Source: an uncultured Planctomycetota bacterium
Lineage (GTDB): Bacteria; JAJVIF01; JAPKYR01
Reading direction: 5' to 3'
Assembly (NCBI GenBank): GCA_964354375.1
Contig: CAYGZQ010000007.1
Location: forward strand, 29,230-93,229
Length of the DNA: 64,000 nt
This document shows positions 2,296-35,794 of this stretch, piece after piece (the stretch's first letter is position 1; every line of letters starts with the position of its first letter). Below the pieces are notes generated by a model. It had not been told where the DNA came from, did no database searches, and saw only the letters and a program-made list of their open reading frames with translations. The translations under genes were made by a program, and so were the position numbers.

Positions 2296-3225
2296 ATGGA
2301 TTGGCCCTCCGATACCGAGAACTCCGGGTACTATGCGTTTGAGCCGGAGAGGTTTCTTATCCCGCCGATGGAGGGGTTTCTTCGGCGCATTTTCGCAGCC
2401 CGCTGGGGGATGATACTGGTCAGCGGCCCCGAAGCCATGAACCTTCCGGTGATTCTGAATTTCCTGGCCAACTTCGCGCTCCAGCAGGTTTACTACAGCG
2501 AGTTCTCGGCGCAGAAGGCAGATTTCCAGGATCTCGAAAGCGAGAGAAGAAGACTGAGGACCATCGAAGAGGTCCTCGAGGAAGCTCGCGAGGCGGTTTC
2601 CCGGTCCGGCAAGGAAGAGGGCGAGACGGGCGAATACTCCGGACACATTCCGCGCAATTCGGATGTGGTTTTCATCTCCGACCTGAGACCCGAGCTGGTG
2701 TCCGACAGTGTGGCTACGTCGCTCGGGGGCAGGCTTGTGGTGTCGGGCATCCGATCAGAGGGGAGTTTCCCGGCCCTCAGAGCGTTCAAGGACCTTCTCG
2801 GCAGCGATCATCTCGTCGCCGCGAGTCTCATGGGAATCATCGGCCTCAACGTGGTGTCGAGGATCTGCCCCGAGTGCAAGGTGGAAGTTGAGTACGATCT
2901 GGACGATGAGGATTGTTTCCTGATCGGGATGCACAGGAAGAAGCTGCAGGGTTTCAGGGGAATGGGCTGCGAGTCGTGTCAGGGCTCGGGATACATGGGG
3001 AAGATACTCATCCACGAGGGTTTCGAGATGAGCCCGAAGCTGCGTAACGGCCTTCTTGAGTCGCTGCCGCTAAGGCAGCTCAGGATACTCGCGAAGCAGG
3101 AGGGCATGAGGACGCTTCTGGACGCCACGTGGGATCTGGCCGACGCGGGCGAGACAACGCTTGACGAGGTGATTCGCATTGCCGATGTCACCGACCCCGG
3201 CGGGATCGAACTCGCCGACCTGTGA
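2296..3225 (+). CDS. GspE/PilB-family secretion-ATPase-like protein with degenerate Walker A and B motifs (predicted pseudo-ATPase).
   Basis: The C-terminal tetracysteine region RICPECK...GCESCQGSGYMGK...TTLDEVIRI and the His-box-like region VVFISDLRPE...RLVVSGIRSEGSFPALRAFKDL match the GspE core. The P-loop position reads ILVSGPEAMNLPV and has no GKT/S. Confidence 0.7.
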   Translation: MDWPSDTENSGYYAFEPERFLIPPMEGFLRRIFAARWGMILVSGPEAMNLPVILNFLANFALQQVYYSEFSAQKADFQDLESERRRLRTIEEVLEEAREAVSRSGKEEGETGEYSGHIPRNSDVVFISDLRPELVSDSVATSLGGRLVVSGIRSEGSFPALRAFKDLLGSDHLVAASLMGIIGLNVVSRICPECKVEVEYDLDDEDCFLIGMHRKKLQGFRGMGCESCQGSGYMGKILIHEGFEMSPKLRNGLLESLPLRQLRILAKQEGMRTLLDATWDLADAGETTLDEVIRIADVTDPGGIELADL

Positions 3226-3272: not shown

Positions 3273-3446
3273 AGTATAATTAGATGTGGAAGTTGAGCTG
3301 TAGCTGTACCGTATTTCGATCGTCAGTCTCATTTCCCGCTACCCAATCTGGATTCGGCAACTAGACAGTGGCCGGCGCTTTCACGATGTTCCTTCGCGTG
3401 CCAGCCACGTTGCATAATGAGATTCAGAGAATCCGGGGAGCAGAAG

Positions 3447-4325
3447 ATGAGACCTTCAGACAAGCCAAACCGCCGCCCCCTTTCGTCGCCCAGACGCCTC
3501 GCTCTGCTGGCGACCGCGATATGCCTGTGGATATCCACTCTCTCGATCGTCCTTAACCATGAAATCGCGGTCGAATGGCTTCCCGCCACCGCCCCACGTG
3601 TCGCTCCCGACGGCGTTGTCTACCAGAGCACGGACTACTCATGCGGTCCTGCGAGCCTTGCCACTCTCTTCGGGCACTACAACATCGTAAAGAGTGAGCG
3701 GGAGTGGGCGGAGGTCGCCGGCACAAACCTGTCTGTGGGCACGCGACTGAGCGGGCTGAAGAAGGCGGCGGAGAGCATGGGATTCGAGCCGGTCGCTCTG
3801 AATCCCACATTCGATCAGCTCGACCTGATCTGCCGGCCGTCCATTCTCTTCCAGTCAAAGGACTACCACCTCGTCACGTTCTGGGGAATGGACCGACAGG
3901 GCTGCGCGATCATACGCGATCCCGCGCTGGGACGCACTCGATGGGGTCCGGCTGAGTACGCCGCTTTTACGCCTTCCAGGCCCGATCTCCTCGTGTTCTA
4001 TCCCGGTCGCGTGCCTACGTGCGGACCCGAAAGCTCCAGCATGGAAATCGGCAGAATCCAGAATATGCTTTCTGCGCTGGGTTACTACAAGGGCAAGGTC
4101 GACTGCGCATGGACAGACCGCCTTGCCGCAGCCGTCGCTTCCTTCCAGAGCGACATGCGTCTCGATCCCACCGGAATCGTCGACGCTCCCACGGACATCT
4201 ACCTCGAAGGCGCCTGGCGTCTCGTGACGAACGGGCCCATCGAGCCGTTCATGAGGATCGACTGCACCAATGAACCGACGCATCGGCCGGTAGCCATCCT
4301 GACCCGCCTCTCACCCTCCGAATAA
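3447..4325 (+). CDS. Secreted or membrane-anchored C39-family cysteine peptidase domain protein with a C-terminal peptidoglycan-binding (PG_binding_1-like) domain.
   Basis: The ATG at 3447 has a GGGGAG RBS 7 nt upstream; the longer ORF starts at 3417. The N-terminus has an Arg-rich n-region followed by a TM helix. The C39 motifs are present: Q-x5-CGPASL (YQSTDYSCGPASLATLF) and HLVTFWG...IRDP. The PG-binding-like repeat is IQNMLSALGYYKGKVDCAWTDRLAAAVASFQSDMRLDPTGIVD. Confidence 0.7.
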   Translation: MRPSDKPNRRPLSSPRRLALLATAICLWISTLSIVLNHEIAVEWLPATAPRVAPDGVVYQSTDYSCGPASLATLFGHYNIVKSEREWAEVAGTNLSVGTRLSGLKKAAESMGFEPVALNPTFDQLDLICRPSILFQSKDYHLVTFWGMDRQGCAIIRDPALGRTRWGPAEYAAFTPSRPDLLVFYPGRVPTCGPESSSMEIGRIQNMLSALGYYKGKVDCAWTDRLAAAVASFQSDMRLDPTGIVDAPTDIYLEGAWRLVTNGPIEPFMRIDCTNEPTHRPVAILTRLSPSE

Positions 4326-4409: not shown

Positions 4410-5192
4410 TTGAGCGAGAACGCCACAAAGCCCCTGGTCTGTGTTCCCACCTTCAACGAGCGCGAGAACATCTCGAAGCTGATTGGCTGCATATTCGATG
4501 CGATCCCGTTTGCCGAGATCATGATAGTCGACGACGGCTCGCCGGACGGCACCGGCGCTATTGTCGACGAGATGGCGTCGAAAAATCCGCACATTCATTG
4601 CATCCATCGCGCGGGCAAGATGGGGCTTGGGACCGCCTACATCGCCGCCTTCAAATGGGCCCTCGAGCGCGACTACACCCATTGCTTCGAGATGGACGCC
4701 GATTTCAGCCACGACCCGAAGGATCTGCCGAGACTCCTCGACGCAACGAAGGAATTCGACATCGCGATCGGGTCGAGGTTCTATGCGGGGAAGCTCTCGA
4801 TAGTCAACTGGCCGCTGTCAAGGCTCATCCTGTCGCTCGCCGCCACCGTCTACGCCCGGGTGATCACCGGCTTGAGGCTGTGGGACTGCACGACCGGCTT
4901 CAAGTGCTTCCGACGGAAGGTGCTCGAACACCTGCCCCTCGATAAGGTGAAAAGCGAGGGCTACTCGTTCCAGATCGAGATGAATTTCCGCGCGACCAGA
5001 ATGGGCTTCAAGGTGGGCGAGATACCGATCGTCTTCACCGACCGCACCCAGGGTGGCAGCAAGATGTCGAAGAGGATCGTCTTCGAAGCGATCTGGCGGG
5101 TATGGCAGCTTCGATGGGCCGGGGCTATGGAGGATTTGGGCTGCCTGCTAAGGGGAAAGCGTCGCCCCAGACCGGGCAGAGCACAGGGTTAG
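4410..5192 (+). CDS. GT2 glycosyltransferase, polyprenol-phosphate mannose/glucose synthase (Dpm1/Ppm1-like).
   Basis: PTFNERENI, IMIVDDGSPDGTG, the DXD-containing EMDADFSHDP and QGGSKMS are typical of the Dpm1 family. It has a TTG start and a TAG stop. Confidence 0.8.
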   Translation: MSENATKPLVCVPTFNERENISKLIGCIFDAIPFAEIMIVDDGSPDGTGAIVDEMASKNPHIHCIHRAGKMGLGTAYIAAFKWALERDYTHCFEMDADFSHDPKDLPRLLDATKEFDIAIGSRFYAGKLSIVNWPLSRLILSLAATVYARVITGLRLWDCTTGFKCFRRKVLEHLPLDKVKSEGYSFQIEMNFRATRMGFKVGEIPIVFTDRTQGGSKMSKRIVFEAIWRVWQLRWAGAMEDLGCLLRGKRRPRPGRAQG

Positions 5193-7027: not shown

Positions 7028-7885
7028 TTAGCCGAGGTTTATGTTAAATCCCTTCGAGCCTGAGCCGCGTTCGAACGGCAGGAAGGGCGTCAGTCGACCC
7101 GCCAGGCCCGGCATGGTCATGTGCTGAATCCATACCTTGCCGGGGCCGGTCAGCCTCGCCAGGAAAATACCCTCGCCACCGAGAAATATGTTTTTGAATC
7201 CTTTCTGAAGCTTGATGTCGTAGGTCACGCTTGCCTCGAAACACGCGATATGCCCCGTGTCGATGAGAAGGCTCTGGCCGGGCTGAAGATCCCGGGTGGT
7301 CAGCTCGCCGTCGATCTCCAGGAACACCAGGCCCGGACCGGTGAGCTTCTGCAAAACCAGGCCCTCGCCGCCGAAGAAAGCCGCCCCCGCTCCCCGCCAT
7401 TCCATCGCGAGGTCCACCTCCTCCTGTCCGACCAGGAAACTTCCGCGCTGCGCGATGATCGCTTCTCCCGCCTTCAGCTCGAACGGGAGTATCTTGCCGG
7501 GGAAGCTCGATGCAAACGCGACAGTGCCGGGCGCATTCTCGGCTTTGAAGTAGTTGAGGAAAAGGCTTTCGCCCTGTATGGCGCGACTGGCGGCCTTCAG
7601 AAAAGTGTCCAGCGCGCCCTTGCTCTCTTTCCCTTTTTGAATGGACGTTTCCATTTCTATCGAGGCGTCCATCCAGACCATCCCTCCCGTCTCGGAGAAC
7701 ACTCGCTCCCCCTGGGGGAGGTCGATCTCCACTGTCTGCAGAATCTCGCCCGCAATACGGTAGACGAGCGGTTTGGGCTGGGCCGGTGCGACAGACGCCT
7801 CCTGGGCTCCTCCCGTCTTCGCCCCGCATTCCGGGCAGAACTTCGCGTTGTCATTCAGTTGCTTTCCGCAGTTTGGACAGAACAT
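7028..7885 (-). CDS. Protein with an N-terminal double zinc ribbon followed by an AIM24/TIGR00266-family domain.
   Basis: MFCPNCGKQLNDNAKFCPECGAKT is followed by a roughly 230-aa region with Gly-rich beta motifs (GGEGLVLQKLTGPGLVFLEIDGEL, GGEGIFLARLTGPGKVWIQ) typical of AIM24/DUF124 proteins. Confidence 0.65.
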   Translation of the reverse strand: MFCPNCGKQLNDNAKFCPECGAKTGGAQEASVAPAQPKPLVYRIAGEILQTVEIDLPQGERVFSETGGMVWMDASIEMETSIQKGKESKGALDTFLKAASRAIQGESLFLNYFKAENAPGTVAFASSFPGKILPFELKAGEAIIAQRGSFLVGQEEVDLAMEWRGAGAAFFGGEGLVLQKLTGPGLVFLEIDGELTTRDLQPGQSLLIDTGHIACFEASVTYDIKLQKGFKNIFLGGEGIFLARLTGPGKVWIQHMTMPGLAGRLTPFLPFERGSGSKGFNINLG

Positions 7886-7944
7886 GCCGTTGTTAATCCT
7901 CCGATGTAGAGTTTATCAGCCGAAGCCCAAAAAGCTCCGGCATA

Positions 7945-9108
7945 CTAGACCAGTTTCGTTCCGCATTTGTTGCAGAATTTCTCCTCCGGGTCGACTTGAT
8001 CGCCGCATTTCGGACAGAAGTTCGGCTTGGCTTCCCCAATGGACGGCATCTCGGGAGCGGCTTTCTCCTCCACCGCTTTCGGATGTCGCCTGCCCGCAAG
8101 CACAGCAACAAGTATCACCACGCCCGCAAGCAGAACCAGTATCACCCACCAATACAGGATCACGAATTTGATAATCAGCACCAGGACAATCGACAGCACA
8201 AGGCTTATGACACCTATCACGAATCTCAGCCCGCCACCGACGAAAGGCACGTACTTCAGCAGAAACAGAAGCGGTCCGATTATCAGGTTGAAGCCGAGGA
8301 AGAACAGAATCACACTCAACGCAGTCAGACCCCACTTGGCGGCGCTTTCGCTTGCCGCCAGATCGGCCACGAGCTCATCGGCGCTCTTGTCGGTGATGAT
8401 GAACGGCGTCCCCGACGAAATCCTGTCGCTGACCATCTCTCCCACCACGACCAGGTCGCCGACATCCTCAATCGGCAGATACTCGACAAGAAGCCATCGC
8501 GACCCGAGAGTCTCCGGACCCTTGTCCTGGCAACTCTCGAACCTCGTCAGCCTCAGGTCGGATTCCCTGGGAAGGACCTCGATCTCGCCGAGCATGAATG
8601 AAGAGGCAGCCTGGGTCTGTTCATCGAGGACCTGCCAGTCCTGGACCATGTACTGCTCCTCGACCGTTTCCTGGACTTCCTGACCGTTGACGGTGCGCGT
8701 CACAGTCTTCTGCCTTGTCTCCGGGTGCTCCCTGAACTCCTTGAGGGCCGTGTGATACCAGAAGACATCCTCTTTCGCATTGATTTCCTTGCACGCGATG
8801 TCGAAAGGCATCACCTCGACATTCTCGGGTTTCCCGTGGACCTTCAGCAGGCCGGTCTGTCCTTTGGCCTCGGCAGCGGTGAGAAGCGGCAGCGCATCGA
8901 GGGTCTTGCTGTGCTCTGCAACCCCTCTCACCGAGCACCACGCCGGAACAAAGGCCAGAGCGAACAGGATAAATCCGAGGAACATGCCTCCGATCGAGTC
9001 CATACATCCCTGCTTGGTGTCGCGGAAGCCTTTCGCCAGTGGATTCGCGCTCCCGAGCACTTTTCTGGACACTACGCGGGAACCGATGAATCTCTCTCTT
9101 GGGCTCAT
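7945..9108 (-). CDS. Membrane protein with an N-terminal signal/TM helix, a roughly 200-aa extracytoplasmic domain, a C-terminal TM bundle and a terminal double zinc ribbon.
   Basis: There is a GGAGGG RBS before the ATG at 9108. A hydrophobic stretch runs FLGFILFALAFVPAWC. The extracytoplasmic domain is followed by three or four TM helices. The C-terminus is FCPKCGDQVDPEEKFCNKCGTKLV. Confidence 0.6.
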   Translation of the reverse strand: MSPRERFIGSRVVSRKVLGSANPLAKGFRDTKQGCMDSIGGMFLGFILFALAFVPAWCSVRGVAEHSKTLDALPLLTAAEAKGQTGLLKVHGKPENVEVMPFDIACKEINAKEDVFWYHTALKEFREHPETRQKTVTRTVNGQEVQETVEEQYMVQDWQVLDEQTQAASSFMLGEIEVLPRESDLRLTRFESCQDKGPETLGSRWLLVEYLPIEDVGDLVVVGEMVSDRISSGTPFIITDKSADELVADLAASESAAKWGLTALSVILFFLGFNLIIGPLLFLLKYVPFVGGGLRFVIGVISLVLSIVLVLIIKFVILYWWVILVLLAGVVILVAVLAGRRHPKAVEEKAAPEMPSIGEAKPNFCPKCGDQVDPEEKFCNKCGTKLV

Positions 9109-9174: not shown

Positions 9175-12100
9175 TCAATATCCCGACACATACACTTCGT
9201 CGATCTGCCAGCCCGCTCTGGAAGCTCCCAGCGAGCCGACAGCAGCGGCGAACGCGAGACGGAAACCGTCCGGATTCCCCACCCATGCCGGGTCCAGGTT
9301 GCACACCGTAAGCCTCATAAACTTGGGATTCGAATCGTTGCAGAAAGCCGGCATTCCTATAAGCTCGTTGTTCCCAAGGATCACGCAGTCATACTCATTA
9401 AACCCACCGTCAAGGTCTGCCGGAAGCTCGCCCCACAGGAAGTCGGTCAGGTAGTCCTTCCCGTTGACGATATGCACGTTCCCGCCGTCCTGGCAGAACC
9501 CCGTAAGTCCGTAATCGTCGAACTCGTAAGAATGTGTGAAGACAAGTTGCAGGGTTGTGAATCCGGGAGGCACGAAGATAGGAGGCGAGAACAGCACCGA
9601 ATGCGTCAGAAGATCGTATTTGTACGTGCTTCCCGAGAACAACGGACCACGACCCACAAGGTTCGGATTCTGGTGCCATCCTATATACCAGCTTGAGGAT
9701 CCCCCGGAGTCGAAATCCTTGATCCAATCGTTCCTGTCATAGTCGGTCGCGCTGAACTCCCAATCGGCATGAAACAATGCGCCGCCTCCGACGCACCATT
9801 CGCTTCGCACTTCCGGCAGATGGAATGCGTCTTGGGCCACTACCGGGATCCAGTAGCGATTGACGTTTTCGTCGAGATAGCCCAGCTCGGAGCCGACAAT
9901 GTCCTCGACCTTGAACGAGATCGAATCGCCGGACACGTCGCCATAATAAACGTCCTCCACCCGCCGCCCGGGAGAACGGTAATCCCAAAGGTACCACTGG
10001 TAATAGACTCGATCGCCGTCGGGATCCTCGGCGGGAAGCTGCAAAGTAACCTGCTGACTCCAGCCCGGCGTCAGGTTCCCACCCTCGATCTCGTCCACCG
10101 TCGGCGGATCATTGGGCTGGTCGTCAAGGATGTACACCGAGACATCGTCGATCATCCAGCCCCTCGCGTTCGGGAAGTCCTGATTCAAGGCCGTGCTTGC
10201 CGCGAAACTGACCCTGATATCGTGTCCGGCAAATAGTGGATCGATTCTGGCTACACTGGTCGTCAGGGTATGATGGGTGCCCGAAAAAACGTCCTGGTTC
10301 AGAAGCTTGTTCTGGGTGCCCTCATATATGGGCTTCGCCCAGTACTCCCTTCCGGCTTTGATATTGGCCGGCGTGATGCCATGGGAGAGTATCTCGCCGG
10401 CCTCGGTGATCTTTACGTTTCCGCCGCTGTAGGCCTGCCAGTAGTTGGGGCTCGCGCTACCGTAAATTTGCCCGAAGTCGAAAGAATGCCTGAAGACGAC
10501 TATTCCCTGGGTCATTGCGGACGGCAGATGGATTGCCGGGCTGACGAGAATGTCGGACGACCCGTAATCATAATCGGTGTTCGCTGCGCCGAACTTCCGA
10601 CCGGTCCCATCGAGCGTATCGTCCGTCACGGCGTCGTCGGTCCATCTCGACGGTCCCTCGCCTTCCAGAGTCGCCCAGCCGATGTTGTCGCCTTTGTCTG
10701 CATCGTCCATGCTTGCATGAAAAATCTGGCCATTGACCCACACCGTATACGGATCGGCATTCACAGAAGCGTTGTAACCGTCGTCCACCTTGCACTTGAT
10801 CAGCCACTCGCCCTCCTGAATGCCCGTGGAACTGAAAATCACATCAATCGTCCCATCTTTGTTGCCCTCTCCCAGATCGACCGTGAGTATCCCCTCGGGA
10901 TGCACCACTTTCCAGTTGTATTTGAGCGGAAGAACGCTGTCGACCTTGACCTGGTATGTCACCTCATGCTTGTTTCGCGGATAGAGAGGTCCGGAAATCC
11001 CCTCGGTGATAACCGGCGGCTCGGGCTGCACATGGGGCACAAGCTCGAGCTGGTACTGCACCATCTCGGTTTCGTTCAACGTGATGACACGGATGAAATA
11101 CTGTCCGACATCGCAGACAAGCGACGTATCCAGGCTGCCGACTCCCCCGATCACTTCCGCCTGCGCGATTTTCGTCTCGGACGCATCATAGATCGTGACA
11201 AAGGTCTGCGGGGACGTGGTGTAGAGGTTCACCATCCCCTGCTCCCAGACCTCGGACCCGTTTTGAAATGAATAATAGTCCTTGTAGTCGGTCAGGCTGC
11301 CCCCAAGGCGGCATAACGATCCCTGTGCGACGTCCATCCACTCCAGCGCCTCCGCATCGTCGATCCCGTTGTTCTCATCCGCGACGCATTCCAGCTTGGG
11401 GACGTTGATTATCAGTTCCTGAAAAGCGCTGACCGGCTCGTCAGGAGCCTCGGGAAGTCCCGTGTTGTACTTCAGCCCATCGTTGGAGCCCACTCGAATC
11501 AGCACCAGATGGTCGCCGTCGTGATTGGGAATCGCCTTGCCGCTAAGGTCTATCCGATACCGGGCCTTCGTGCCGTCATCGGATACGAAATTCATCGTCT
11601 GGCCTCCCGAAAACAACTCGGGCGCAAATATTCTGACCGTATCGACTTCCGCCGCGACATTCCCGTTCGCCTTCCCCTGCCAGTCGTAAACATCAGCGTT
11701 TATGACAAGCTGTCCCTTGCCTCCCACTCCCTCCTCAAAACATAGCGTGTTCAATTCGACATGGGCGTCGACATGATACGGTTCCGACTGATTAGCCTCG
11801 ATCGGGAAATCGTCGGGGATTTCCTGCGGGGGAAACGGATCGGGATAATCCCAGCATGCGTCGACGGCATAGTTGAACACGGCCGGACAATCAGTGGCTT
11901 GTGGAGGCTTGACTCTGTATCGTCGCTTGCATGTGGTGCCGACGTACGACACTCCGCGACCGAGGTCATCATCGAGCGGGACATTCGCCATGCTCGTCAC
12001 GGGCTGATACTTGTCGAGGTAGTCGCAGAAGTACTTGTAGGGATTCACGGTGGCGGTCAGCAACTCTGTATCCTGGGTGCCTAGCTCACCGGGCACGTAG

Positions 12101-12630
12101 CCGTTCAAACCCGAGCCTGTAAACTCCCTGGGGTTCCACCAGCGCGTGTACCCGTCCGCATTCAGAAGCCTCCATTCGTCAACGTCCGATACGACAAGAT
12201 TGCCGATCTGCAGGCTGCCCGGCGTCATGAGAATCCCCTTGGCGTCGAAGCCGTACAAACTCGGGCTGTCCGGATACGGATGCGTAAAGGTGAAATCCAG
12301 CGCGAAGATCTTGTTGGGAATGTCGCTTGCCTGCCAGTCAAACCAGATGCCCACGCAGTCATAAGTGTTCAGAGGCTCCACCAGGTTGACATGGAATCCG
12401 GCCGACCTCAGCGGCGTCATCTCGACCGTCAGATTTTCGGTGTCAAGCCTTACCTCCCACAGTCCGAGGAGACGATGATGCGTCCCGCTCTCGTCGCGAC
12501 CGGCAGGGAAGCTCAACGAAGGACTCGACGGATCTCCGCGATCCGATCCTGAGCAGCCTGCCCCGACGCACCACGCAACCGCCGCCATCACCAGGATGCA
12601 TGCCGACCAAACGGCTCTTCGCTTGACCAT
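9175..12630 (-). CDS. Giant lipoprotein, family member A (1151 aa): conserved N-terminal module, a PPC-like segment and two or three MAM/jelly-roll-like modules.
   Basis: GGAGGTGA RBS. Signal peptide plus lipobox VGAGC. The N-module motifs are LLGLWEV, ADGYTRWWNP, TATVNPYKYFCDYL, FNYAVDACW and IPDDFPIEAN. It also has CRLGGSLTDYKDYYSF and repeated C-terminal modules ending GWMIDDVSVY and GWQIDEVYV. Confidence 0.8.
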   Translation of the reverse strand: MVKRRAVWSACILVMAAVAWCVGAGCSGSDRGDPSSPSLSFPAGRDESGTHHRLLGLWEVRLDTENLTVEMTPLRSAGFHVNLVEPLNTYDCVGIWFDWQASDIPNKIFALDFTFTHPYPDSPSLYGFDAKGILMTPGSLQIGNLVVSDVDEWRLLNADGYTRWWNPREFTGSGLNGYVPGELGTQDTELLTATVNPYKYFCDYLDKYQPVTSMANVPLDDDLGRGVSYVGTTCKRRYRVKPPQATDCPAVFNYAVDACWDYPDPFPPQEIPDDFPIEANQSEPYHVDAHVELNTLCFEEGVGGKGQLVINADVYDWQGKANGNVAAEVDTVRIFAPELFSGGQTMNFVSDDGTKARYRIDLSGKAIPNHDGDHLVLIRVGSNDGLKYNTGLPEAPDEPVSAFQELIINVPKLECVADENNGIDDAEALEWMDVAQGSLCRLGGSLTDYKDYYSFQNGSEVWEQGMVNLYTTSPQTFVTIYDASETKIAQAEVIGGVGSLDTSLVCDVGQYFIRVITLNETEMVQYQLELVPHVQPEPPVITEGISGPLYPRNKHEVTYQVKVDSVLPLKYNWKVVHPEGILTVDLGEGNKDGTIDVIFSSTGIQEGEWLIKCKVDDGYNASVNADPYTVWVNGQIFHASMDDADKGDNIGWATLEGEGPSRWTDDAVTDDTLDGTGRKFGAANTDYDYGSSDILVSPAIHLPSAMTQGIVVFRHSFDFGQIYGSASPNYWQAYSGGNVKITEAGEILSHGITPANIKAGREYWAKPIYEGTQNKLLNQDVFSGTHHTLTTSVARIDPLFAGHDIRVSFAASTALNQDFPNARGWMIDDVSVYILDDQPNDPPTVDEIEGGNLTPGWSQQVTLQLPAEDPDGDRVYYQWYLWDYRSPGRRVEDVYYGDVSGDSISFKVEDIVGSELGYLDENVNRYWIPVVAQDAFHLPEVRSEWCVGGGALFHADWEFSATDYDRNDWIKDFDSGGSSSWYIGWHQNPNLVGRGPLFSGSTYKYDLLTHSVLFSPPIFVPPGFTTLQLVFTHSYEFDDYGLTGFCQDGGNVHIVNGKDYLTDFLWGELPADLDGGFNEYDCVILGNNELIGMPAFCNDSNPKFMRLTVCNLDPAWVGNPDGFRLAFAAAVGSLGASRAGWQIDEVYVSGY

Positions 12631-12669
12631 CTCGACTCACCTCCGCATGCGATTCGGACTTGAACTCGG

Positions 12670-15600
12670 TCACTCCACCCCGTAAAGAACGACCTCATCA
12701 ATCAGCCACCCTCTGCGTGGCACACCGGACAGGCTTGAGGACGCCGCGAATCCGACGCGAATGCTCATCGGGTCCGCCAGCCACAAAGGATCAAGATACG
12801 CGTAGGAGATCCTCATTGCAGCCGGGGCCTCGTCGTTACAGAAGGCATCCTGACCGCCAAGCAGACCACCCGACTCAAGCTGGCAATCATACGGGAAGCC
12901 TATGTCCATCTGTTCCGGGGGGTCGAACCAATGGAAATCGGTCAGGTAGTTGTCAGCCTCGACAACGTGCACGTTCCCGCCGTCATGGCACTCCGAGACC
13001 ACATCATCATCGTAGAACTGGTAGTAATGGGCGAACCCGATCATCGCTTCGCTGAATCCGGGAGGGATGAAAATCGGGGGAGTGAAAAGCACTGCGTGAT
13101 CGTCAGTCGTGTAATCGGTGTCCGCATCGGCGAACTTGTACCCACACCCGCCGAGCACCGAATCCGTCACGCTCGCACCGTGCCATGTCGAGTCGCTGCC
13201 TTCGTCGAACGCGGTATCCCACTCGGCCTTATCGTAATACGGAGTCGGGTCATCGGGATCAAACCAGAAGAGAATCCCGTTGCCCACCGTCCACGCTTCC
13301 CTCTTTATTCCCTCATGATATCCGTCTGTTACCGACACGCTGACTCGGAATCGATTGCTGTAGCCACCGGTCACGAGATCGCTGATGACGAAGTCAAGAG
13401 CGGGGGCGATCGGATCGTAGTAGATGTTCCTCACTCGAACGCCGGGATACCGGAAATCCCACAGCGACCAGGTTCTGTAAATTGCGTCCCCGTCCGGATC
13501 GGACGCCGCCATCGCGTAATGAAGAGGATCATCCATATGGGGCGCAAGGTCCCCGCCTTCCAGCGGTCCGGCATCGGGTTCCTGATTGGGAGCATCTCCC
13601 TCGACATATACCGCGACATCGTCGATCAGCCAGCCGCGGTAGTTTGAGTATTCATGTCCGGTTGTCACGGCAAAGCCGATGTAGATATCGTTTCCGGCCA
13701 TTGCCGGAGGAATGCTCGCGGCGGAGACGGTGAGTCTGAACGGATCGGAAGCCTCATTCGACCGGTAGCAGAACGCCTGCTGGTCCTCCATCAGGGTATC
13801 GCCCTGGATCAGCTGGGACCAGCATGGCATCCCTCCCGTAATCTCGGCCGGCAGAACGTCGTAGGACGGGAGCTCGGGCGCCTCCGTTATCTTCACATTG
13901 CCTCCGTCGTATCCCTCCCAGAACTCGTACCCCGGCCTCGTCTTGGCAATGTCGAGGTCGTACGAGTGACGGAAAGCGATAATCCCGTGACCCATCCCGC
14001 TCGGAAGACTCACGGGCGGGCTCACAAGGATGTCGGACGAATTGTTCGTGTAATTAGTATTCGCCTCTCCAAACTTTCGACCTTCGCCCTGAAGCAGGGT
14101 GTCCGAGGTGGCCAACAGGGTCCACGCCGTGGTTCCAGCCTGCCCCACATGGGTCCAGCCCGCATTGTCTCCAGTCGTGTCATCGTTCAAATCAGCATGG
14201 AAAATCTGACCGTTAACCCAGACATGGTATGGGTCGGCCGAGACCGGTCCCCCCACCCCGTTCGTGACTTCACAACGGATCTCTGCTTCCCCCAGGATAC
14301 AGAAATCCGAGAACTTGACCTCCAGATGACCGTTGCCGTCGCCCGGATCGGGTCCGAACACCACAAAACCCGAGTCCACGATAGTCCAGCCATACGTCAC
14401 CGGCCAGACTGAATCAACCCCGATTTCGTACAGGGTGTTCTGTGCGCATCGGGGATACTTGTATCCGCTGATTTGGCTCACGATCACCGGCGCTGAGACG
14501 TCCTGAGCGTTCCCCTTGAGATCGACGTAGTAGTAGATCGTGTCCACTTCGTTCATTGTCAGAACGCGGAGATAATAGGTCCCCGGCATCAGGTAAAGCG
14601 CGCCGAGATCGATCTGGGCCTTCCCGCCGGAAATCTCCGATTGCGTCAGCTTCGTATGGGTCGAATCGAACACGCTCAGGAAGACCATGTTCGACCAGGC
14701 ATAGAGCGTGGCTGATCCTGTAAGCCCCTTGTCTACCGGAATTTCGAAGGAGTAGTAGTCGCTGTAGTCGATCAGCTCTCCGCCAGGGCGGCAGAGAGTC
14801 CCGTAGGCGGAGTCGATGAGATCGAACGGTTCCGCAGTGGCAAAAGTGTTGTTTCCGTCCGGGCCGCATTCGAGTTCCTCGACATTGACCCAGAGCACCT
14901 GGTAGGCGCTTAACGGCTGGTCCGGAGCTCCCGGCGCAAATGAGTTGTACTTCAGGCCGTCGTTCGATCCGACCCGGAATATCACCTGATGCTCACCTGA
15001 GCGCGCGGGGTTCACGATTCCGCTCAGATCAACGGAATAGACCGCCTTGACTCCCGTGTCCTGCACAAGGCTCATGGTCTGCCCCCCGCTGAAAAGCTCG
15101 GGAGCGAAAACCCGCACCGTGCTGACCTGGTCCGCGATGTTCCCGAGCGCCTGACCCTGCCAGTCGTACACTTCGAGCGTCAACAGGAGATTTCCACCGC
15201 CACCGGTCCCCGCATCGAATCCCAGCGTGTTCACATCGGCTCTCGGAAGCAAATGGAACGCCTCCGGCTGGTTAGCCTCCATTGGGAAATCATCCGGAAT
15301 TTCTCCGGGTGGATTCGGCACCGGCGGCGCCCATGATGCGTCCACTGCGTAGTTGAAGATGACCTGGGGACCGGGGGACATCTGGAACCAGATGAAGTAC
15401 CTTCTCGTGTTCGACGATCCGGCCGTGAACACCCCCCTGCCCTCGTCATCGTCCAGACCGACAAATTCGATCAGCTCTTCGATTGGCTGCTTAAACCCGA
15501 GGTAATCGCAGAAATATTGGTACGGATTCACGGTCGCAGTCAACAGGCCCGTGTTCGCGGTTCCCAGATTGCCCGGGATATATCGCATCATTCCCGACCC

Positions 15601-16137
15601 GTGGAACTCTGTCGGGTTCCACCATCTCGTATACCCGTCGGCACTTGTCAGGCGTGTCTCGGTCGGTCCTGCGAACACAAGATTCCCAACTACCTGGGTG
15701 CCGGGAGTAATCATGATGCCCTTCACGTCGAAACCCGCAAGCTGCGGGCTCGTTGCGAAAGGATGGGTCAGCGTCACGTCCACCGTGAACTTGCCCATCG
15801 CCGGGTCGCTGGCCGGGAGGTCGATAACCGCAGCCACTCCCATGGTCGAGTTGAGTATCCCCACGACATTCATGTGGAACGCGCTGTTCCTGAGCGGGAT
15901 CATCTCTACCGTCATCTTGTCGCGATCCAGTATCGCCTCCCAGTATCCCCACAGCCCGTGCGCCGCGCCCTTCGAAGAAGAAGCCGCGGCTTGAGTCAGT
16001 GCCTGCGAATCAACGCTCGTCTCCCCGGAAGCTCCCGGGGCAACCGGAATGTCGCCGGAACATCCCGCGGCAAGAAACACCGTGGCAAGAGCGAGGAAGG
16101 GAAGAGTACTACGCGTCCAGAGAATCAGCCGTTTCAT
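12670..16137 (-). CDS. Giant lipoprotein, family member B (1155 aa), a tandem paralog of A.
   Basis: AAGGAG RBS and lipobox LAAGC. The whole protein is collinear with A: HGLWGYWEA, ADGYTRWWNP, TATVNPYQYFCDYL, FNYAVDASW, IPDDFPMEAN, CRPGGELIDYSDYYSF, and GWLIDDVAVY / GWLIDEVVLY. Confidence 0.8.
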   Translation of the reverse strand: MKRLILWTRSTLPFLALATVFLAAGCSGDIPVAPGASGETSVDSQALTQAAASSSKGAAHGLWGYWEAILDRDKMTVEMIPLRNSAFHMNVVGILNSTMGVAAVIDLPASDPAMGKFTVDVTLTHPFATSPQLAGFDVKGIMITPGTQVVGNLVFAGPTETRLTSADGYTRWWNPTEFHGSGMMRYIPGNLGTANTGLLTATVNPYQYFCDYLGFKQPIEELIEFVGLDDDEGRGVFTAGSSNTRRYFIWFQMSPGPQVIFNYAVDASWAPPVPNPPGEIPDDFPMEANQPEAFHLLPRADVNTLGFDAGTGGGGNLLLTLEVYDWQGQALGNIADQVSTVRVFAPELFSGGQTMSLVQDTGVKAVYSVDLSGIVNPARSGEHQVIFRVGSNDGLKYNSFAPGAPDQPLSAYQVLWVNVEELECGPDGNNTFATAEPFDLIDSAYGTLCRPGGELIDYSDYYSFEIPVDKGLTGSATLYAWSNMVFLSVFDSTHTKLTQSEISGGKAQIDLGALYLMPGTYYLRVLTMNEVDTIYYYVDLKGNAQDVSAPVIVSQISGYKYPRCAQNTLYEIGVDSVWPVTYGWTIVDSGFVVFGPDPGDGNGHLEVKFSDFCILGEAEIRCEVTNGVGGPVSADPYHVWVNGQIFHADLNDDTTGDNAGWTHVGQAGTTAWTLLATSDTLLQGEGRKFGEANTNYTNNSSDILVSPPVSLPSGMGHGIIAFRHSYDLDIAKTRPGYEFWEGYDGGNVKITEAPELPSYDVLPAEITGGMPCWSQLIQGDTLMEDQQAFCYRSNEASDPFRLTVSAASIPPAMAGNDIYIGFAVTTGHEYSNYRGWLIDDVAVYVEGDAPNQEPDAGPLEGGDLAPHMDDPLHYAMAASDPDGDAIYRTWSLWDFRYPGVRVRNIYYDPIAPALDFVISDLVTGGYSNRFRVSVSVTDGYHEGIKREAWTVGNGILFWFDPDDPTPYYDKAEWDTAFDEGSDSTWHGASVTDSVLGGCGYKFADADTDYTTDDHAVLFTPPIFIPPGFSEAMIGFAHYYQFYDDDVVSECHDGGNVHVVEADNYLTDFHWFDPPEQMDIGFPYDCQLESGGLLGGQDAFCNDEAPAAMRISYAYLDPLWLADPMSIRVGFAASSSLSGVPRRGWLIDEVVLYGVE

Positions 16138-17937: not shown

Positions 17938-17998
17938 CGTCCCGGGTGATTCGAGTACTCTACCCTAAGAGGTCATGCAAGAGCAATCCCCCCCCATC

Positions 17999-19342
17999 TC
18001 AGCGGGCGCATCCCGCAAACGACTCGCTGAAATTCACGAACACCCCCGCCAGGCACCAGGCCCAGAACAGCGCAGTGTCCAGCCGACTCCACCTGCCGAC
18101 CCTCCTTGACGACTCCGCCCCGATGACCGCCATGCTCCCAAGCGGCACAATCAGAAACAAGTGATAGAAATCGTGACCCGGAACCCAGAAGCTTAGAAAT
18201 ATCATAAGCGGCAGCACCCACAGAACGCACAGCCCGAACCACCATCGCAGCATCGGAGCCATTTTCCTCAAATTCAGAATGCCCGTCAGCCAGATCGTCG
18301 GAAGAACAATAGCGAATCCGCTGAACCAGACGCTCCGGAACAGAAGCCGGTCCGTGCGCACACCTCCGAAATAGAAACCGAGGAATGTCCTGAGATTCGT
18401 CGCGAATCCGTCCCAGGCCGATTGCGCCCAGTACTCTCTCTGATGGGCATAGAGCGTCGCGTATTTGATCAGCCCTGGAAATGTGAACTCGCCGGTCGGA
18501 CCCAGCGCAAGCGCCGCAACGATGACATAGACAAGTACAGGCGCTCCGAGCGCGATCGCGGTCATGCCCCCGAACCAGCCCGCAGAAATCCCTCGCCCCT
18601 CCCTTTTCATTGCGACCATCAGCATCAGGACCCAAACCAGGATGAAAGGAACTATGATGCTCACGATCTGATGGAACAGGATAGCGACTGCAAGCCAAAG
18701 CCCTGCCCGAATGAGAAAAGCCGGCTTGCCGTTCGATGCGAAAGCGAGAATCGCGCCCGAGGCGACCGCGAGCAGCATCACGGCGGTCGGGTACTGAGCG
18801 CCGTCCGTTGCGTACCGGAAAAAAGTGACACTGGTCGCGAGGAACACGCACCAGGGCAGTGGGAACGGACTTCCCGGCACGAGTCGAATCAGAAGCCGGT
18901 ACAGCAGAAATACCGTGGCGGCGCACACGAGTGCGTTCCACCACTGCAGGAAGGTGATTGCGCCGAGCTGGGGGACCGCCTGTCGCAACAGACGGAAAAT
19001 GGCCGCTGTAACCGGCAGATAGAACAGATGATGCGGGTTCCACAGCACCCACCATCCCGCGCTGCGCTCCCGCTCTCCAAGTCCCCGAAGCTCTTCCGTC
19101 GAAAGCCGTGGACTCACCGGCATAGATGGAGGCGGCACCGTCACGTAGAACGGGGTTCCCTCGGCGGATGCGTAATTGTGAAGATAAATCGCCCAGCCCT
19201 GAGCATCGCCGTTCGGAATCTTCGCATTGGGACACGCAAGGTAGACGACCAGGCATACGAAGCCGAGTATCCAGCCGACCAGATACTCGCGTCTCGACGG
19301 CGATCTCTGAAGTGCGCTTTCCTCCATTAGCGGTCGGGACAA
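17999..19342 (-). CDS. GT-C-fold membrane glycosyltransferase-like protein (PMT/ArnT/DUF2723-like, 12 or more TM helices).
   Basis: 447-aa polytopic ORF. The track places a TTG at 19342; the first ATG is at 19327. An Asp/Glu-containing first periplasmic loop and the helix pattern resemble dolichyl-phosphate-mannose-type transferases. Family assignment is tentative. Confidence 0.5.
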   Translation of the reverse strand: MSRPLMEESALQRSPSRREYLVGWILGFVCLVVYLACPNAKIPNGDAQGWAIYLHNYASAEGTPFYVTVPPPSMPVSPRLSTEELRGLGERERSAGWWVLWNPHHLFYLPVTAAIFRLLRQAVPQLGAITFLQWWNALVCAATVFLLYRLLIRLVPGSPFPLPWCVFLATSVTFFRYATDGAQYPTAVMLLAVASGAILAFASNGKPAFLIRAGLWLAVAILFHQIVSIIVPFILVWVLMLMVAMKREGRGISAGWFGGMTAIALGAPVLVYVIVAALALGPTGEFTFPGLIKYATLYAHQREYWAQSAWDGFATNLRTFLGFYFGGVRTDRLLFRSVWFSGFAIVLPTIWLTGILNLRKMAPMLRWWFGLCVLWVLPLMIFLSFWVPGHDFYHLFLIVPLGSMAVIGAESSRRVGRWSRLDTALFWAWCLAGVFVNFSESFAGCAR

Positions 19343-19553
19343 GACTAACCCAGCCGGAAAGCAGGCGCAACAGAAGAATCACCGCAAGGGCGCCAAGAAC
19401 ACCAGGGACACCAAGAAGACGGACAAAATGAACCTTAACAGCAGGAAAATATCTCTGAATGGGGACGAGAGGCGGCCTCATACCAGGAATCGTCGCCCGA
19501 AAGGTTGATACCCAGGCTCGCAAGCAATAGAATACCGATTCCGTTTGCTTCAG

Positions 19554-21740
19554 ATGTCTGATTCTCACAACATGTACAGGCTCAACTCCCGGATTGCGAG
19601 GTCCAGCGACGGATGTCCGGCGCATCCGTCCCACTCCCAGTATCACCTTCTCAGGCTGCTCATCGGTAGTCTTCTCGGCGGCTGGAGCGCGATGCTGGTG
19701 TTCATGCTCCTGGGATTCCTGGGATCGATCGAGTTCACCCGGTCGGGGGGGCTGGCGATGCAGTGGGTATTCGTCGGGGGATCCGTGCTCGGCATCCTGC
19801 TCGGCCTGATCTTCTCGATAATCGCTGCCGTGCTGGTCAACATGATCCCGCCGCTCGGCAGAATCCTTCACCCGCTTGCGCTGGTAAGGGCAGGTTTCAT
19901 TCTGGTAATCGTCTGGCCTCTTGCTGCCCTGGCTCCCTGGCCGTACACATCTCTCGGTTTCGTACTGGCCCCGTTCGTCGCCATACTCCTGGCCTGGCTC
20001 GGCCTGAGGGGCAACCTTCACGCCGAGCTTGTGCCGCACTCCTCGATCGGACGGCTCCTTGGTACATCCGTCGGACCGTTCCTCGCCCTTGCGCTCGCTC
20101 TGTTCATCCTCATCCCGATGGTCAACCGCGGCTTCGGCAATCCGCACCAACCCAGGCTGGTTATCATCGCTGTCGACGGTGTCGACGGTCAGCTCCTGAA
20201 CCAATTCGTGCATGCCGAAGATTCCGACAAGTATGCGAACCTCAGACAGATGGCCGACGAGGGCGGCCTCGGAATAGTCGGAGCCGTTCAGCCCCTCGTA
20301 CCCACTCGCATGTGGGCGGACCTCATGACCGGCACCGACGCCGAGACTCACGGAATCTTCGACATCCACAGCACGTCCGCCGACTTCAAGGGCATGCCGA
20401 TATGGGAGATTCTCTCGGAACACGACTACAGGGTCGGCCTGTTCCAGGTTGCCCCTCCGCATGAGAAATGGTCGGACGCCGAATTCGACATTGCCGCGCC
20501 GGGCACGTTCGAGGCGCGAACCGATCCTCTGGCTCTCGTCCTCGAAAACGTCAGGGCGGCCGGTCGAGGCGAGGGCCGCCCGAATCCCCTGCAGGCACTC
20601 TACCTCGCGTGCCTTCTTGCCAGACACGGCGTAACGCTCGAAACGATCGCCGACCTGGCAAGGGAGTATCTCCTCGAGCTTGCCACCCGACCGTCGCCGC
20701 GTCTCACGTACCAGGCTCGCAAGCTTCTCGAGTTCAGAATCGAAACCGACTGCGCTCTCGCCCTTTTGAGACAGCATCCCGTGGATGCGGCGATCCTCCG
20801 TTTCGACAGTCTCGGACCCCTGTTCTTCACGTACTGGCGATACTCGAAGGCAAACGAGTTCGGTCCGCCGCCGGAGGATGTCGACGCTTCGGTTCTTGCG
20901 GGGCTCGGACAGGTCCTGCCGGACGCTTATGTGCAGCTCGACGGCCTCGTTCGGAGGCTTGAGACATTTCGCGGCCCCGGGACTTATTTCGCCGTTGTCT
21001 CCAACCACGGAATGAGGTCCGCCACCGATCGCAGACGCCTGGATCTCCAACTGTCCCCGGATCGGCTCATCCGGGCCTGCGGCTGGGAGGGTCGAGTCGT
21101 GGGAGACTCGGGCGGCGATGCCGTCTACTTTCGGCTCAGGGAGCCGTCGACCGATTCGGACCCGCTTATCGAGCTTGAGGACCTGCTGAGGACCGCCGAA
21201 TGGTCCGCCGGAGTCGACAATTATTCCGGAAGCAGAGGCATGCGAAATCTCCTGACCACCAACCGGCGTGAGAACTACCTCGAGGTCACCATCACCTTCT
21301 CCCATGATCTGACGCGCGAGTCATGGGTCACTATGGGCGCCTGGTCGGGACCGCTTGGGGATATCCTGCTTCCGGGCGAGCCGATGAGCGGACTTGTCTC
21401 CGGCACCGGCGTTTTTCTTGTATCCGGTCCGAGTTTCAAACCGGACGCGGTCGCAAACAGCCCTGCCCTCTTCGACATAGCGCCGACCCTGCTGCATGCG
21501 CTGGGCATTGAGATTTCCCGGGAGCTCCTCGGCCGCGTGATGGATGAGATGTTCGATTCTGTATGGCTCAGCAAGCATCCGGTCAGGTTCATCGACAGTT
21601 ACCATCCGCCCCGGCCTGCAGAACCCGAGCCGGGCCTCCAGCCGTCGACCCAGCCTCCCGAGGCGTTTCAGTATTCCGTCCCCGAGCCCCAGACCCCCGA
21701 GGAAATCCACTACTCCCCCCCGGCGCCTGTTGATTTGTAG
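19554..21740 (+). CDS. Membrane-anchored alkaline-phosphatase-superfamily protein (type I phosphodiesterase/nucleotide pyrophosphatase-like) with a Pro-rich C-terminus.
   Basis: After four or five N-terminal TM helices comes LVIIAVDGVDGQ, the metal-binding motif of the AlkP core, then a roughly 450-aa soluble domain. The start is uncertain: ATG 19554 or TTG 19545. Confidence 0.55.
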   Translation: MSDSHNMYRLNSRIARSSDGCPAHPSHSQYHLLRLLIGSLLGGWSAMLVFMLLGFLGSIEFTRSGGLAMQWVFVGGSVLGILLGLIFSIIAAVLVNMIPPLGRILHPLALVRAGFILVIVWPLAALAPWPYTSLGFVLAPFVAILLAWLGLRGNLHAELVPHSSIGRLLGTSVGPFLALALALFILIPMVNRGFGNPHQPRLVIIAVDGVDGQLLNQFVHAEDSDKYANLRQMADEGGLGIVGAVQPLVPTRMWADLMTGTDAETHGIFDIHSTSADFKGMPIWEILSEHDYRVGLFQVAPPHEKWSDAEFDIAAPGTFEARTDPLALVLENVRAAGRGEGRPNPLQALYLACLLARHGVTLETIADLAREYLLELATRPSPRLTYQARKLLEFRIETDCALALLRQHPVDAAILRFDSLGPLFFTYWRYSKANEFGPPPEDVDASVLAGLGQVLPDAYVQLDGLVRRLETFRGPGTYFAVVSNHGMRSATDRRRLDLQLSPDRLIRACGWEGRVVGDSGGDAVYFRLREPSTDSDPLIELEDLLRTAEWSAGVDNYSGSRGMRNLLTTNRRENYLEVTITFSHDLTRESWVTMGAWSGPLGDILLPGEPMSGLVSGTGVFLVSGPSFKPDAVANSPALFDIAPTLLHALGIEISRELLGRVMDEMFDSVWLSKHPVRFIDSYHPPRPAEPEPGLQPSTQPPEAFQYSVPEPQTPEEIHYSPPAPVDL

Positions 21741-28500: not shown

Positions 28501-29073
28501 GAGAGCGAAGTCCTCGGCACCCTCGGCGGCATTCATCTCGCCAAGGGCGATATCCAGATCGCCAGGGAGTACTTCGAGCGATCCATGGAAGTCAAGAAAG
28601 TCATCGGGAACATGGTAGGAATGCTGCACTCGCAGATCACGCTTGCGAGGATCGCCAACATGGAGGGACGTCACGACGAGGGTCTGAGACTCGCCGAGGA
28701 GGTTCTGGAGAACGCACGCAAGAGAAACCAGCGCTCAATCGAACTCGAGTGCCTCACGGAGATCATGGTTGCGAAGGCCCAGATCGAAAACCCAGTCAAA
28801 GCCCTGGATGTCCTCAGCGCAAACGAGGACCCCTCGAACCTGAACGCGGGCGTATCCTCGGCACTCATATCGTTCGCCTACAAGGTCGGCGAGCTCGCAT
28901 TCCAGGCGGGCGACGAGAGCCGCGCGCTCAGGTACATCGGCCTGTCGGGCAAGATCGTCGAGGGTATCCTCGAGAGCATCACCGAGCCCGAGTGGCGTTC
29001 CGCATACGAAAAGAAACGGGAGCGCATCCTGGAGACATATCGGCGTCTCAAGCCCGCCATCGCGGAAACGTAG
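25546..29073 (+). CDS. PknK/MalT-like multidomain regulator: an N-terminal Ser/Thr protein-kinase domain, an AAA/STAND P-loop NTPase and C-terminal TPR repeats.
   Basis: Kinase motifs are the G-loop IGSGLSAHAF, the VAIK-like VVVKIIK, the non-RD catalytic loop HGDLHAGN and DFG (IDFGLA). The P-loop is FVSGEAGVGKTRLVDEV. Beyond about residue 800 are repeated TPR-like helices (e.g. YNNLGLVCRNTMRQSEMIRYFRRALDIF). Confidence 0.85.
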   Translation: MSEDAGAYLGLRLKGRYLIEDHIGSGLSAHAFRAYDTLLQGRVVVKIIKSSIADVAIDLGEKWKEESRKAMQVRGHPHIASILDLGEETLAVSDKPENVHFIVTEFIEGKTLRDLAGDRSPLDPPTIFAISHQLLSTLDFLQARKLSHGDLHAGNIMVSQTGGNRPFIKIIDFGLASNTLVPRNREKDIHFALGQLEHLCKKALAVEKEEHTRAVLESFAAQLKKAQNFIPSGRMRIADLVAEVETLQQELAKGAVPGAKAVTDGEGPRRRIDVTRRTHFVGRKNEVERLYQLTSNAFLSKQGALMFVSGEAGVGKTRLVDEVLGRIATERTRHLLLYNRCKQAPNLPHAALFEAVTDFLDEIPGGTDEEKLSVVLGSSHNIVRPFASLIADYRAISGMNPSRDPEISSSGNAAHLFSGFLTQAALNTPVVLFLDDLHWADAATLEFLDFFAARIHDSPIVVFATHRPEELAGGRDGKPHPLDILLAKLDSNVSTRTIELGGLEREEVDEILSNLYTFVRPDDFTALSESVRKMAGGNPFYLFEITGLMEDEKILVERGENNWILDGDLAEFAVPDSINSLIHRRVDRLSLNEILLLRAAALQGDSFDINLLERMFTPPDENLSDIIENLLKRHGLIQQREPVHFAFSHHQVRRAILRGIPQDDVARGHHDIARLLQQMAEENQTAVPNYLIAHHLSLAGENTAAAENFHAAGKRALKAQQFHLALDHLRHAADLLGPSDMETVLGINVTLDLLEAVKPLGERKLHEMAVHQLQAIAGHTGRPDLQLRSMLEECIYLRMISENEKSLQVALSLLELARKKEDEQTEAVALKEAGTTSYLMGNMETAEEYFHLAAGILASTGDRAQLARVYNNLGLVCRNTMRQSEMIRYFRRALDIFREIDDSIGQRFPLGNLGIVYFERGEYERAFECFSALKASMGDRADLMMEAKVDFSIGEIYLEVGLLDKARESCEHALETFMTIGNRQGESEVLGTLGGIHLAKGDIQIAREYFERSMEVKKVIGNMVGMLHSQITLARIANMEGRHDEGLRLAEEVLENARKRNQRSIELECLTEIMVAKAQIENPVKALDVLSANEDPSNLNAGVSSALISFAYKVGELAFQAGDESRALRYIGLSGKIVEGILESITEPEWRSAYEKKRERILETYRRLKPAIAET

Positions 29074-30693: not shown

Positions 30694-30734
30694 ATTCCAG
30701 TCCTTTCGATTACGAGTCGAATATCTCCCGAGCT

Positions 30735-35776: not shown

Positions 35777-35794
35777 ATGCCGGGACCGAAAGCC

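Follow-up and report, generated by a model that had tools for sequence, protein, structure and literature searches.

What is the constant part of a protein family for, when everything attached to it changes? The question is raised by a stretch of DNA from an uncultured Planctomycetota bacterium (contig CAYGZQ010000007.1, positions 29,230 to 93,229; the whole stretch, 64,000 nucleotides (nt), is referred to hereafter as the window), in which five genes encode predicted lipoproteins that begin alike and end differently. A preliminary description of the window, made from the letters alone, had placed five such genes here, two of them in tandem, and all five minus-strand open reading frames (ORFs) are present at the coordinates given below. 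The letters A–E denote the five family copies, and residue numbers of the shared N-terminal module (N-module, or head) are those of protein A.

Gene A, 9175–12630, minus strand: ORF with translation; lipoprotein of 1151 amino acids (aa), N-module followed by a PPC-like/immunoglobulin (Ig)/jelly-roll/Ig/jelly-roll tail
Gene B, 12670–16137, minus strand: ORF; 1155 aa, paralogue of A with the same architecture, N-module at nt 14806–15963
Gene C, 22216–24537, minus strand: ORF; 773 aa counted from the ATG at these coordinates, N-module at nt 23200–24384
Gene D, 45184–47961, minus strand: ORF; 925 aa, N-module at nt 46630–47835, then a PKD domain, then a probable right-handed β-helix
Gene E, 48012–50777, minus strand: ORF; 921 aa, N-module at nt 49440–50648, then an Ig-like segment, then a PQQ_2-type β-propeller

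The five proteins have in common a collinear module of ~375 aa (residues 51–430 of A, 59–444 of B, 52–446 of C, 43–444 of D, and 44–446 of E), which is 55% identical between A and B, 62% between D and E, and 32–37% in all remaining pairs (over ~350–378 aligned residues). Low complexity, the alternative source of such likeness, was checked by composition-adjusted BLASTP and is excluded by the resulting E-values (A against D, 2e-35 over 360 residues; A against C, 2e-55), such that the shared module proposed at the outset stands. A hidden Markov model (HMM) built from the five sequences and run against the six-frame ORFs of the window found no sixth copy. The motifs first used to describe the module fall into two groups: HPFPG, GFDV.G, NADG.TRWWNP.EF, ATxNPYKY, RRY, F.YA.DA.W, and PDDFP..AN..E are family-wide, whereas FAPELFSGGQTM / ETPDGLITTGG and SNDGLKYN proved to be subgroup-specific and lie in a less conserved Ig-like subdomain.

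Comparison with characterized families left the module without a name. Searches with Pfam-A and NCBIfam at E ≤ 0.1 gave no credible match to it (NF004843 of NCBIfam overlaps residues 290–345 of A at chance level, with an E-value of 0.044 and 13 bits against a cut-off of 308), no precomputed Pfam domain falls on the module in any of the 120 homologues listed, and profile searches of all PDB sequences reached E = 0.3 at best; a look through the literature for the signature motifs found nothing relevant. The AlphaFold2 (AF2) model of residues 51–430 of A, computed from a 76-sequence alignment, has a mean predicted local distance difference test score (pLDDT) of 90.8 and a predicted TM-score (pTM) of 0.90. 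It predicts an all-β module, in which a core of ~235 residues with long, confidently placed loops is followed by an Ig-like sandwich of ~125 residues, and the two scores suggest that these subdomains pack rigidly against one another. A Foldseek comparison of the module with the PDB gave no whole-module structural match (query-normalized TM ≤ 0.23), and the matches that do occur are generic Ig-like or β-barrel domains only. Resemblance to the white spot syndrome virus envelope proteins VP37, VP28, VP26, and VP24 (single β-barrel) extends over less than one third of the module's 380 residues, with 4% identity, and is most likely a generic barrel/sandwich likeness from which no function should be read. 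The early claim that the module belongs to no characterized family therefore agrees with sequence, profile, and fold comparisons alike: the N-module is previously undescribed, and has no analogue of its whole length among the solved structures of the PDB, the one collection with which its fold was compared. Gene A is laid out in full below.

Signal peptide of A, 12553–12630, minus strand: ends in the lipobox VGAG-C26, with a Pro/Ser tether containing DPSSPS next (from the sequence)
N-module of A, residues 51–430, 11341–12480, minus strand: all-β core plus Ig-like sandwich in the AF2 model
Core of the N-module, about residues 51–285, nt 11776–12480, minus strand: limits from the secondary-structure string and from short members covering ~74% of the module
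Ig-like sandwich of the N-module, about residues 286–410, nt 11401–11775, minus strand: limits from the secondary-structure string and from short family members
Tail domain 1, about residues 432–532, 11035–11337, minus strand: PPC-like, with DYKDYYSF
Tail domain 2, about residues 540–632, 10735–11013, minus strand: Ig/PKD-like
Tail domain 3, about residues 635–835, 10126–10728, minus strand: jelly roll resembling MAM domains and carbohydrate-binding modules (CBMs), ending RGWMIDDVSVY
Tail domain 4, about residues 851–956, 9763–10080, minus strand: Ig-like, with a low-confidence loop; from AF2 and a weak PKD match at residues 859–883, boundaries approximate
Tail domain 5, about residues 970–1150, 9181–9723, minus strand: second MAM/CBM-like jelly roll, ending AGWQIDEVYVSGY

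Conservation, computed on 298 non-identical modules, is concentrated in the core. Forty positions are at least 90% conserved, and 18 of these are polar (R75, N82, H117, D129, N157, D159, R163, N166, E169, N196, K199, R225, R236, Y238, Y254, N280, E283, and D316); each of the 18 is at least 93% conserved though the sequences are only 28–35% identical, which suggests a catalytic or a ligand/metal-binding site. The most conserved block of all, RLLNADGYTRWWNPxEF, is modeled at a pLDDT of 96–97 and is mostly neither helix nor strand. The Ig-like subdomain is far less conserved than the core, and head-only members of the family (~390–420 aa, on contigs longer than 90 kb) comprise little beyond that core.

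Each of the five proteins starts with a basic/hydrophobic signal peptide closed by a lipobox Cys (GAGC, AAGC, LLGC, ALGC, and ALAC in A–E, respectively), after which a Pro/Ser-rich linker leads into the module. The strict lipobox [LVI][ASTVI][GAS]-C occurs in 206 of 242 complete N-termini of relatives, with Ser at position +2 in 147 of the 206, and the 12 non-fitting N-termini that were listed all still read x-x-[GAS]-C; the distance from Cys to module in relatives has a median of 26 aa. Lipid anchoring, as the preliminary description had it, is predicted from these signatures for all five window proteins and for essentially all complete N-termini of relatives. Shortly past the lipobox Cys, at 5–10 residues, a P-x-x-P motif is found in 145 of 228 members (64%, against 22% expected from composition). 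The window also encodes an S8 subtilase lipoprotein (51917–54262, plus strand) that is not related to the A–E family, and whose N-terminus reads CNSEGDPSSPA, with [DS]-P-x-S-P near the lipobox Cys as in A–E; a further lipoprotein (29806–30738, minus strand) is devoid of this tether motif. Its occurrence in both A–E and a non-homologous subtilase suggests that P-x-x-P/DPSSP may be an organism-wide feature, a general lipoprotein tether or surface-sorting signal of the lineage.

Behind the head, the proposal of different tails holds well beyond the window, with at least 20 sequence classes among the tails of complete relatives. In 17 representative classes, Pfam recognizes PPC, PKD, PQQ_2, SBBP, and LVIVD propellers and a Kre9-type Ig domain; neither these 17 nor the five window tails contain a Pfam catalytic domain. 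One relative of 1868 aa (L057:81–5684, in MAG JAUWTM01; MAG, metagenome-assembled genome) carries, besides the N-module, a Kre9-like Ig domain and regions that resemble anthrax protective antigen (8e-10 for the Binary_toxB Ca-binding domain and 0.003 for domain 2), which hints at a pore-forming tail.

The tails of the window were predicted earlier in some detail, and these predictions fared unequally. In D, the PKD domain is secure (PF18911 at residues 428–510, 8.2e-14 and 51.9 bits against a cut-off of 27), whereas the β-helix is seen as a weak match below the Pfam cut-off (PF13229, E 0.0031, 17.6 bits against 25.9), accompanied by weak matches to TIGR03804 and Pectinesterase. In E, the PQQ-like propeller is found (PQQ_2, 6e-11) but the IPT/TIG domain is not, there being no Pfam TIG match at E ≤ 0.1; this segment, which also has a weak NCBIfam match to the CoaZ repeat (5e-4, below cut-off), plausibly has an Ig-like fold. 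E-like tails recur at three other loci (L011, L018, and L071). The 343-aa tail of C has no Pfam match and clusters with that of L060:5621–7972.

For A and B, the evidence for PPC-like, PKD/Ig-like, and MAM/jelly-roll-like domains is at the level of predicted fold only. The AF2 model of the A tail (from 11 sequences; pLDDT 80.6) contains five β domains, for which fold comparison gave, in descending order, a chondroitinase CBM (DUF4955; 12.0), MAM domains (11.0–11.3), an ephrin-receptor ligand-binding domain (11.2), the gingipain K1 adhesin domain (10.8), CBM61, CBM4, and CBM70 (about 10), PPC domains (9.5–10.2), and PKD domains (9.5). The MAM and CBM jelly rolls concerned (8jiy for the DUF4955 CBM, 8yt7 and 2c9a for MAM, 2xom for CBM61) are to be compared with the A/B tail and not with the head. 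Both modules end in the strand motif GW.ID[DE]V; identity is 10–14%, and neither a MAM nor a CBM domain is matched in Pfam. This tail class is rare, amounting to nine clusters at 90% identity; we considered other relatives of ~1150 aa as further A/B-like members, but in most of them the likeness ends with the PPC-like start, after which an LVIVD-type propeller follows.

The family reaches far beyond these five genes. A word-indexed search returned 299 relatives, all of them metagenome or MAG proteins annotated as hypothetical, and hmmsearch of 1.84 billion 50%-identity representatives returned 2199 proteins at E ≤ 1e-3, of which 1336 reach E ≤ 1e-30. The module is single and N-terminal in all 150 matches listed, starting by about residue 74 and mostly at 30–58 (a few entries are N-terminally truncated). 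Among the GTDB species-representative genomes, 484 stretches were confirmed; the best 80 of these lie in about 10 MAGs, which are labeled “Planctomycetota bacterium” or “bacterium” and come from cold seeps, soil, lake sediment, and other sources. Seventy-three loci were fetched; among them, a single MAG accounts for at least 38 distinct copies and a second one for 21, with tandem arrays of 2–4 genes. One such array (L077:2372–12010) has HEAT genes in between its four members of ~650 aa (646, 660, 660, and 645 aa). That the family is lineage-specific, as first suggested, agrees with the profile and word-indexed searches, which place it in MAGs and metagenomes only, within one lineage. The NadA protein encoded in the window has its closest relatives at 67–84% identity, falling to at most 59% for named phyla, a drop that fits a deep uncultured lineage; the taxonomic placement is based on these relatives and on the MAG labels. 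Protein A itself has no identical entry on record.

Within this lineage, A and B have histories of their own. A forms a clade with P0387 (92% identical) and with P0388, P0389, and P0310 (54–57%), B a clade with P0392 (92%) and with P0390, P0391, and P0393 (57–58%), and the two clades are 42–44% identical to one another. Because P0387 and P0392, the respective orthologues of A and B, sit on one contig of a sister genome, and both clades are conserved, we regard the tandem pair as an old duplication kept in several genomes. Locus L071 likewise has an E-like gene followed by a D-like orthologue, in the order seen in the window. The “diversifying” surface system of the preliminary description is not borne out: A and B are old clades whose orthologues in other genomes are 54–92% identical, and whose tandem arrangement is retained. 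As far as the sequences tell, the family pattern is that of a stable specialized repertoire, neither rapidly diversifying nor phase-variable.

Taken at the level of predicted protein features, A–E belong to a large lineage-specific family of modular lipoproteins, each consisting of a lipobox, a flexible tether of ~26 residues, one N-terminal all-β module, and a swappable tail of binding type. As to what the members do, we tentatively favor a division of labor in which the head carries the common activity, at a catalytic or ligand/metal-binding site made of the conserved polar residues, and the tails direct the paralogues to different extracellular polymers. The site would comprise His117, Asp129, Asn157, Asp159, Arg163, Asn166, Glu169, Asn196, Lys199, Arg225, Arg236, Tyr254, Asn280, and Glu283, and would act on, or bind, one common chemical feature; it would most likely be either a hydrolytic or lytic site of carboxylate/His/Tyr type or a Ca2+-dependent ligand site. 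Domains of the types found in the tails (PPC, PKD/Ig, MAM/CBM-like jelly rolls, β-propellers, and β-helix) usually bind glycans or proteins, and interchangeable tails of this sort could send each paralogue to a different extracellular polymer, A and B being two old specialized members that would each bind their targets through two jelly rolls. The cell would in that case present a whole set of tethered proteins, and the description we prefer, with the same reserve, is that of proteins tethered to the outer membrane that capture or process polymers and have a new head domain, the function being inferred. We take the head-only members, the conserved polar residues, and the accessory character of the tails together as support for an activity residing in the head, and count in its favor the possible co-sorting with the S8 subtilase that has the same DPSSP tether. 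A more specific form of the proposal, rather unlikely as it stands, would make the ~235-residue core a new fold bearing a new catalytic site. It would then be a class of carboxylate/His/Tyr-based enzymes that cleave glycans or proteins and have no counterpart in CAZy or MEROPS, and an uncultured Planctomycetota-labeled lineage would have amplified it into dozens of tethered paralogues, with a different binding tail to target each.

Several observations weigh against an active head. No Ser or Cys nucleophile is conserved in the module among the 298 sequences, and the PDB fold comparison turned up neither a known enzyme fold nor an active-site motif that the module resembles. The position of the module never varies, always first after the anchor, which fits anchoring or docking equally well. 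Neither transporters nor glycosidases are conserved neighbors across the 73 loci, such that nothing ties the family to polymer use, and in the window A–E stand in a context of housekeeping genes. Some tails could, moreover, be catalytic themselves (the β-helix of D has weak pectinesterase-like matches, and propellers can be enzymes).

The best-surviving alternative, doubtful in our view yet deserving of serious weight, turns the roles around: the head would be a non-catalytic module that anchors or docks the protein on a conserved envelope partner (an outer-membrane protein, a lipopolysaccharide or glycan layer, peptidoglycan, or an S-layer-like lattice), or else a recognition element for surface export, and all specific function would lie in the tails. 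A single N-terminal copy in 150 of the 150 matches listed, placed directly after the tether in every complete N-terminus examined, is what such a module would look like, as is a constant head with swapped classes of tail; its all-β fold with an Ig-like subdomain is unlike any enzyme, and the conserved polar residues could bind an invariant envelope ligand or Ca2+. On the other hand, head-only members would then anchor nothing, and 18 polar residues at such conservation in sequences this divergent exceed what is typical of docking domains. A candidate partner exists for part of the family, in that several MAGs have, directly downstream of family members with a PPC tail or of ~650 aa, a gene for a secreted HEAT_2-repeat protein of ~180–275 aa (with a signal peptide in most copies), at the following positions (locus handle, then coordinates where given).

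HEAT_2 copies: L041:5563–6204; L042:5139–5720; L043–L046; L077:4515–5117 and 12112–12660; L075:6512–7339

This protein, ~200 aa in size, may be a partner of some family subclasses. It has no homologue in the window, however, and clustering of 356 non-family ORFs from the 73 loci yielded no universal partner gene, which speaks against a docking function.

A further alternative, which we consider improbable, sees in the family a variable surface coat, adhesin- or S-layer-like, that would mediate adhesion to varied surfaces or evasion of phages and predators, with the head as the lattice-forming unit. Very high copy number, tandem arrays, adhesin-like tail domains (MAM, the gingipain adhesin domain, PKD), and the predicted lipid anchor of all members are in keeping with a coat; the age of the paralogues is not, orthologues being kept across genomes (54–92% within a clade against 42–44% from A to B), nor is the scattering of the genes among housekeeping genes. 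We saw no repeats, cassettes, or hypervariable segments, and a strongly conserved polar loop would be unusual in a purely structural unit. A last reading, in which the likeness would be an artefact of composition or annotation and no domain, is refuted by the adjusted E-values, by hundreds of independent homologues, and by the confident AF2 model.

In the window, the five copies are spread among genes for an aconitase-family dehydratase, the NAD and pantothenate pathways, and Dus, and near two S8 subtilases, a Ser/Thr-kinase–AAA–TPR protein, and an O-antigen-ligase-like protein. B lies upstream of A across a gap of 39 bp, in which a terminator scan found no terminator-like site; a promoter-like site lies ~86 bp upstream of B, the counts of promoters and terminators around A/B being at or below shuffle expectation. 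Directly downstream of A are two zinc-ribbon proteins (7945–9108, minus strand, with a TMEM43/GIDE-like membrane domain; 7028–7885, minus strand, with an AIM24 domain), and these genes (7028–9108) may be co-transcribed with B and A, from which they are separated by 66 bp. An aconitase-family gene precedes B/A in the window, and another stands a few genes before the array of L077; the two aconitases are only 40% identical, and we regard the shared position as probably a coincidence.

Between B and C, the ORF at 17973–21305 (minus strand, 1110 aa) has a nonsense composition rich in Arg and Gly and no Pfam match, and is almost certainly spurious; the plus-strand ORF that overlaps it (19545–21740, 731 aa) has a weak match of phosphodiesterase/alkaline-phosphatase type (2.5e-4) and may be the real gene. 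Divergent from gene C is a 1175-aa protein with a Ser/Thr kinase, an AAA_16 ATPase, and TPRs, resembling a STAND regulator (25546–29073, plus strand). A compact cofactor stretch (34991–41049, minus strand) holds coaX (type III pantothenate kinase), nadC, aspartate dehydrogenase, nadA, panC, and panB. Two adjoining genes add to the envelope/surface complement of the window: one for a membrane protein of 1143 aa that has Wzy_C (O-antigen ligase-like) and, at its C-terminus, TPRs (57771–61202, minus strand), the other for a 541-aa protein with a weak match to the SBBP β-propeller repeat (62321–63946, minus strand). Near the start of the window, a C39 peptidase fused to a peptidoglycan-binding domain (3417–4325, plus strand) is flanked by a T2SSE-type ATPase fragment (2296–3225) and a GT2 glycosyltransferase (4410–5192).

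What the family signifies depends on the head. Were it an enzyme, it would represent a new catalytic family for the breakdown of environmental polymers, found only in uncultured bacteria of sediment, soil, and cold seeps, and natural variants with differing targets would already be at hand; were it a docking module, it would represent a new way in which surface lipoproteins are organized, in a cell envelope about which little is known. In both cases, a confidently folded and well-bounded domain with ~2,200 sequence clusters, unnamed in the databases, merits a new family entry. Uncharacterized metagenome families are common, and the finding alone answers no long-standing question.

Among known systems, modular secreted hydrolases (collagenases, subtilases, gingipains, and the M36 metallopeptidase NF038112) come close to A and B in the types and order of their accessory domains, and in having one non-accessory domain ahead of them. 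The accessory region of NF038112, a myxosortase-dependent M36 metallopeptidase, matches residues 678–841 of A at 4e-9; the full-length score of A is 34 bits against a cut-off of 1500. The A–E head is itself no member of any peptidase or carbohydrate-active enzyme (CAZyme) family in Pfam or NCBIfam, and possesses neither HExxH nor a Ser/Cys nucleophile.

A second likeness is to systems in which one constant module is common to many otherwise different surface proteins, namely S-layer homology (SLH) domain proteins, cargo with the C-terminal domain of the type IX secretion system (T9SS), and the Slam-dependent surface lipoproteins of Neisseria. All of these combine a constant module with variable parts, and the Slam lipoproteins have in addition a lipid anchor and an all-β architecture. 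Compared with their modules, the A–E head is far larger (375 aa) and contains many invariant polar residues; and unlike the SLH domains and T9SS C-terminal domains, which would be the precedent for docking, it stands at the N-terminus. In its genomic habit, the family recalls the very large sulfatase and CAZyme repertoires of other Planctomycetota: as with the sulfatases, dozens of paralogues per genome are scattered, partly in tandem, old, and conserved. These exo-enzymes have no homology to the A–E family, for which catalysis is conjectural. Set against all of these systems, what is familiar in A–E is the modular envelope lipoprotein with accessory binding domains, and what is new is a head domain that falls in no known family.

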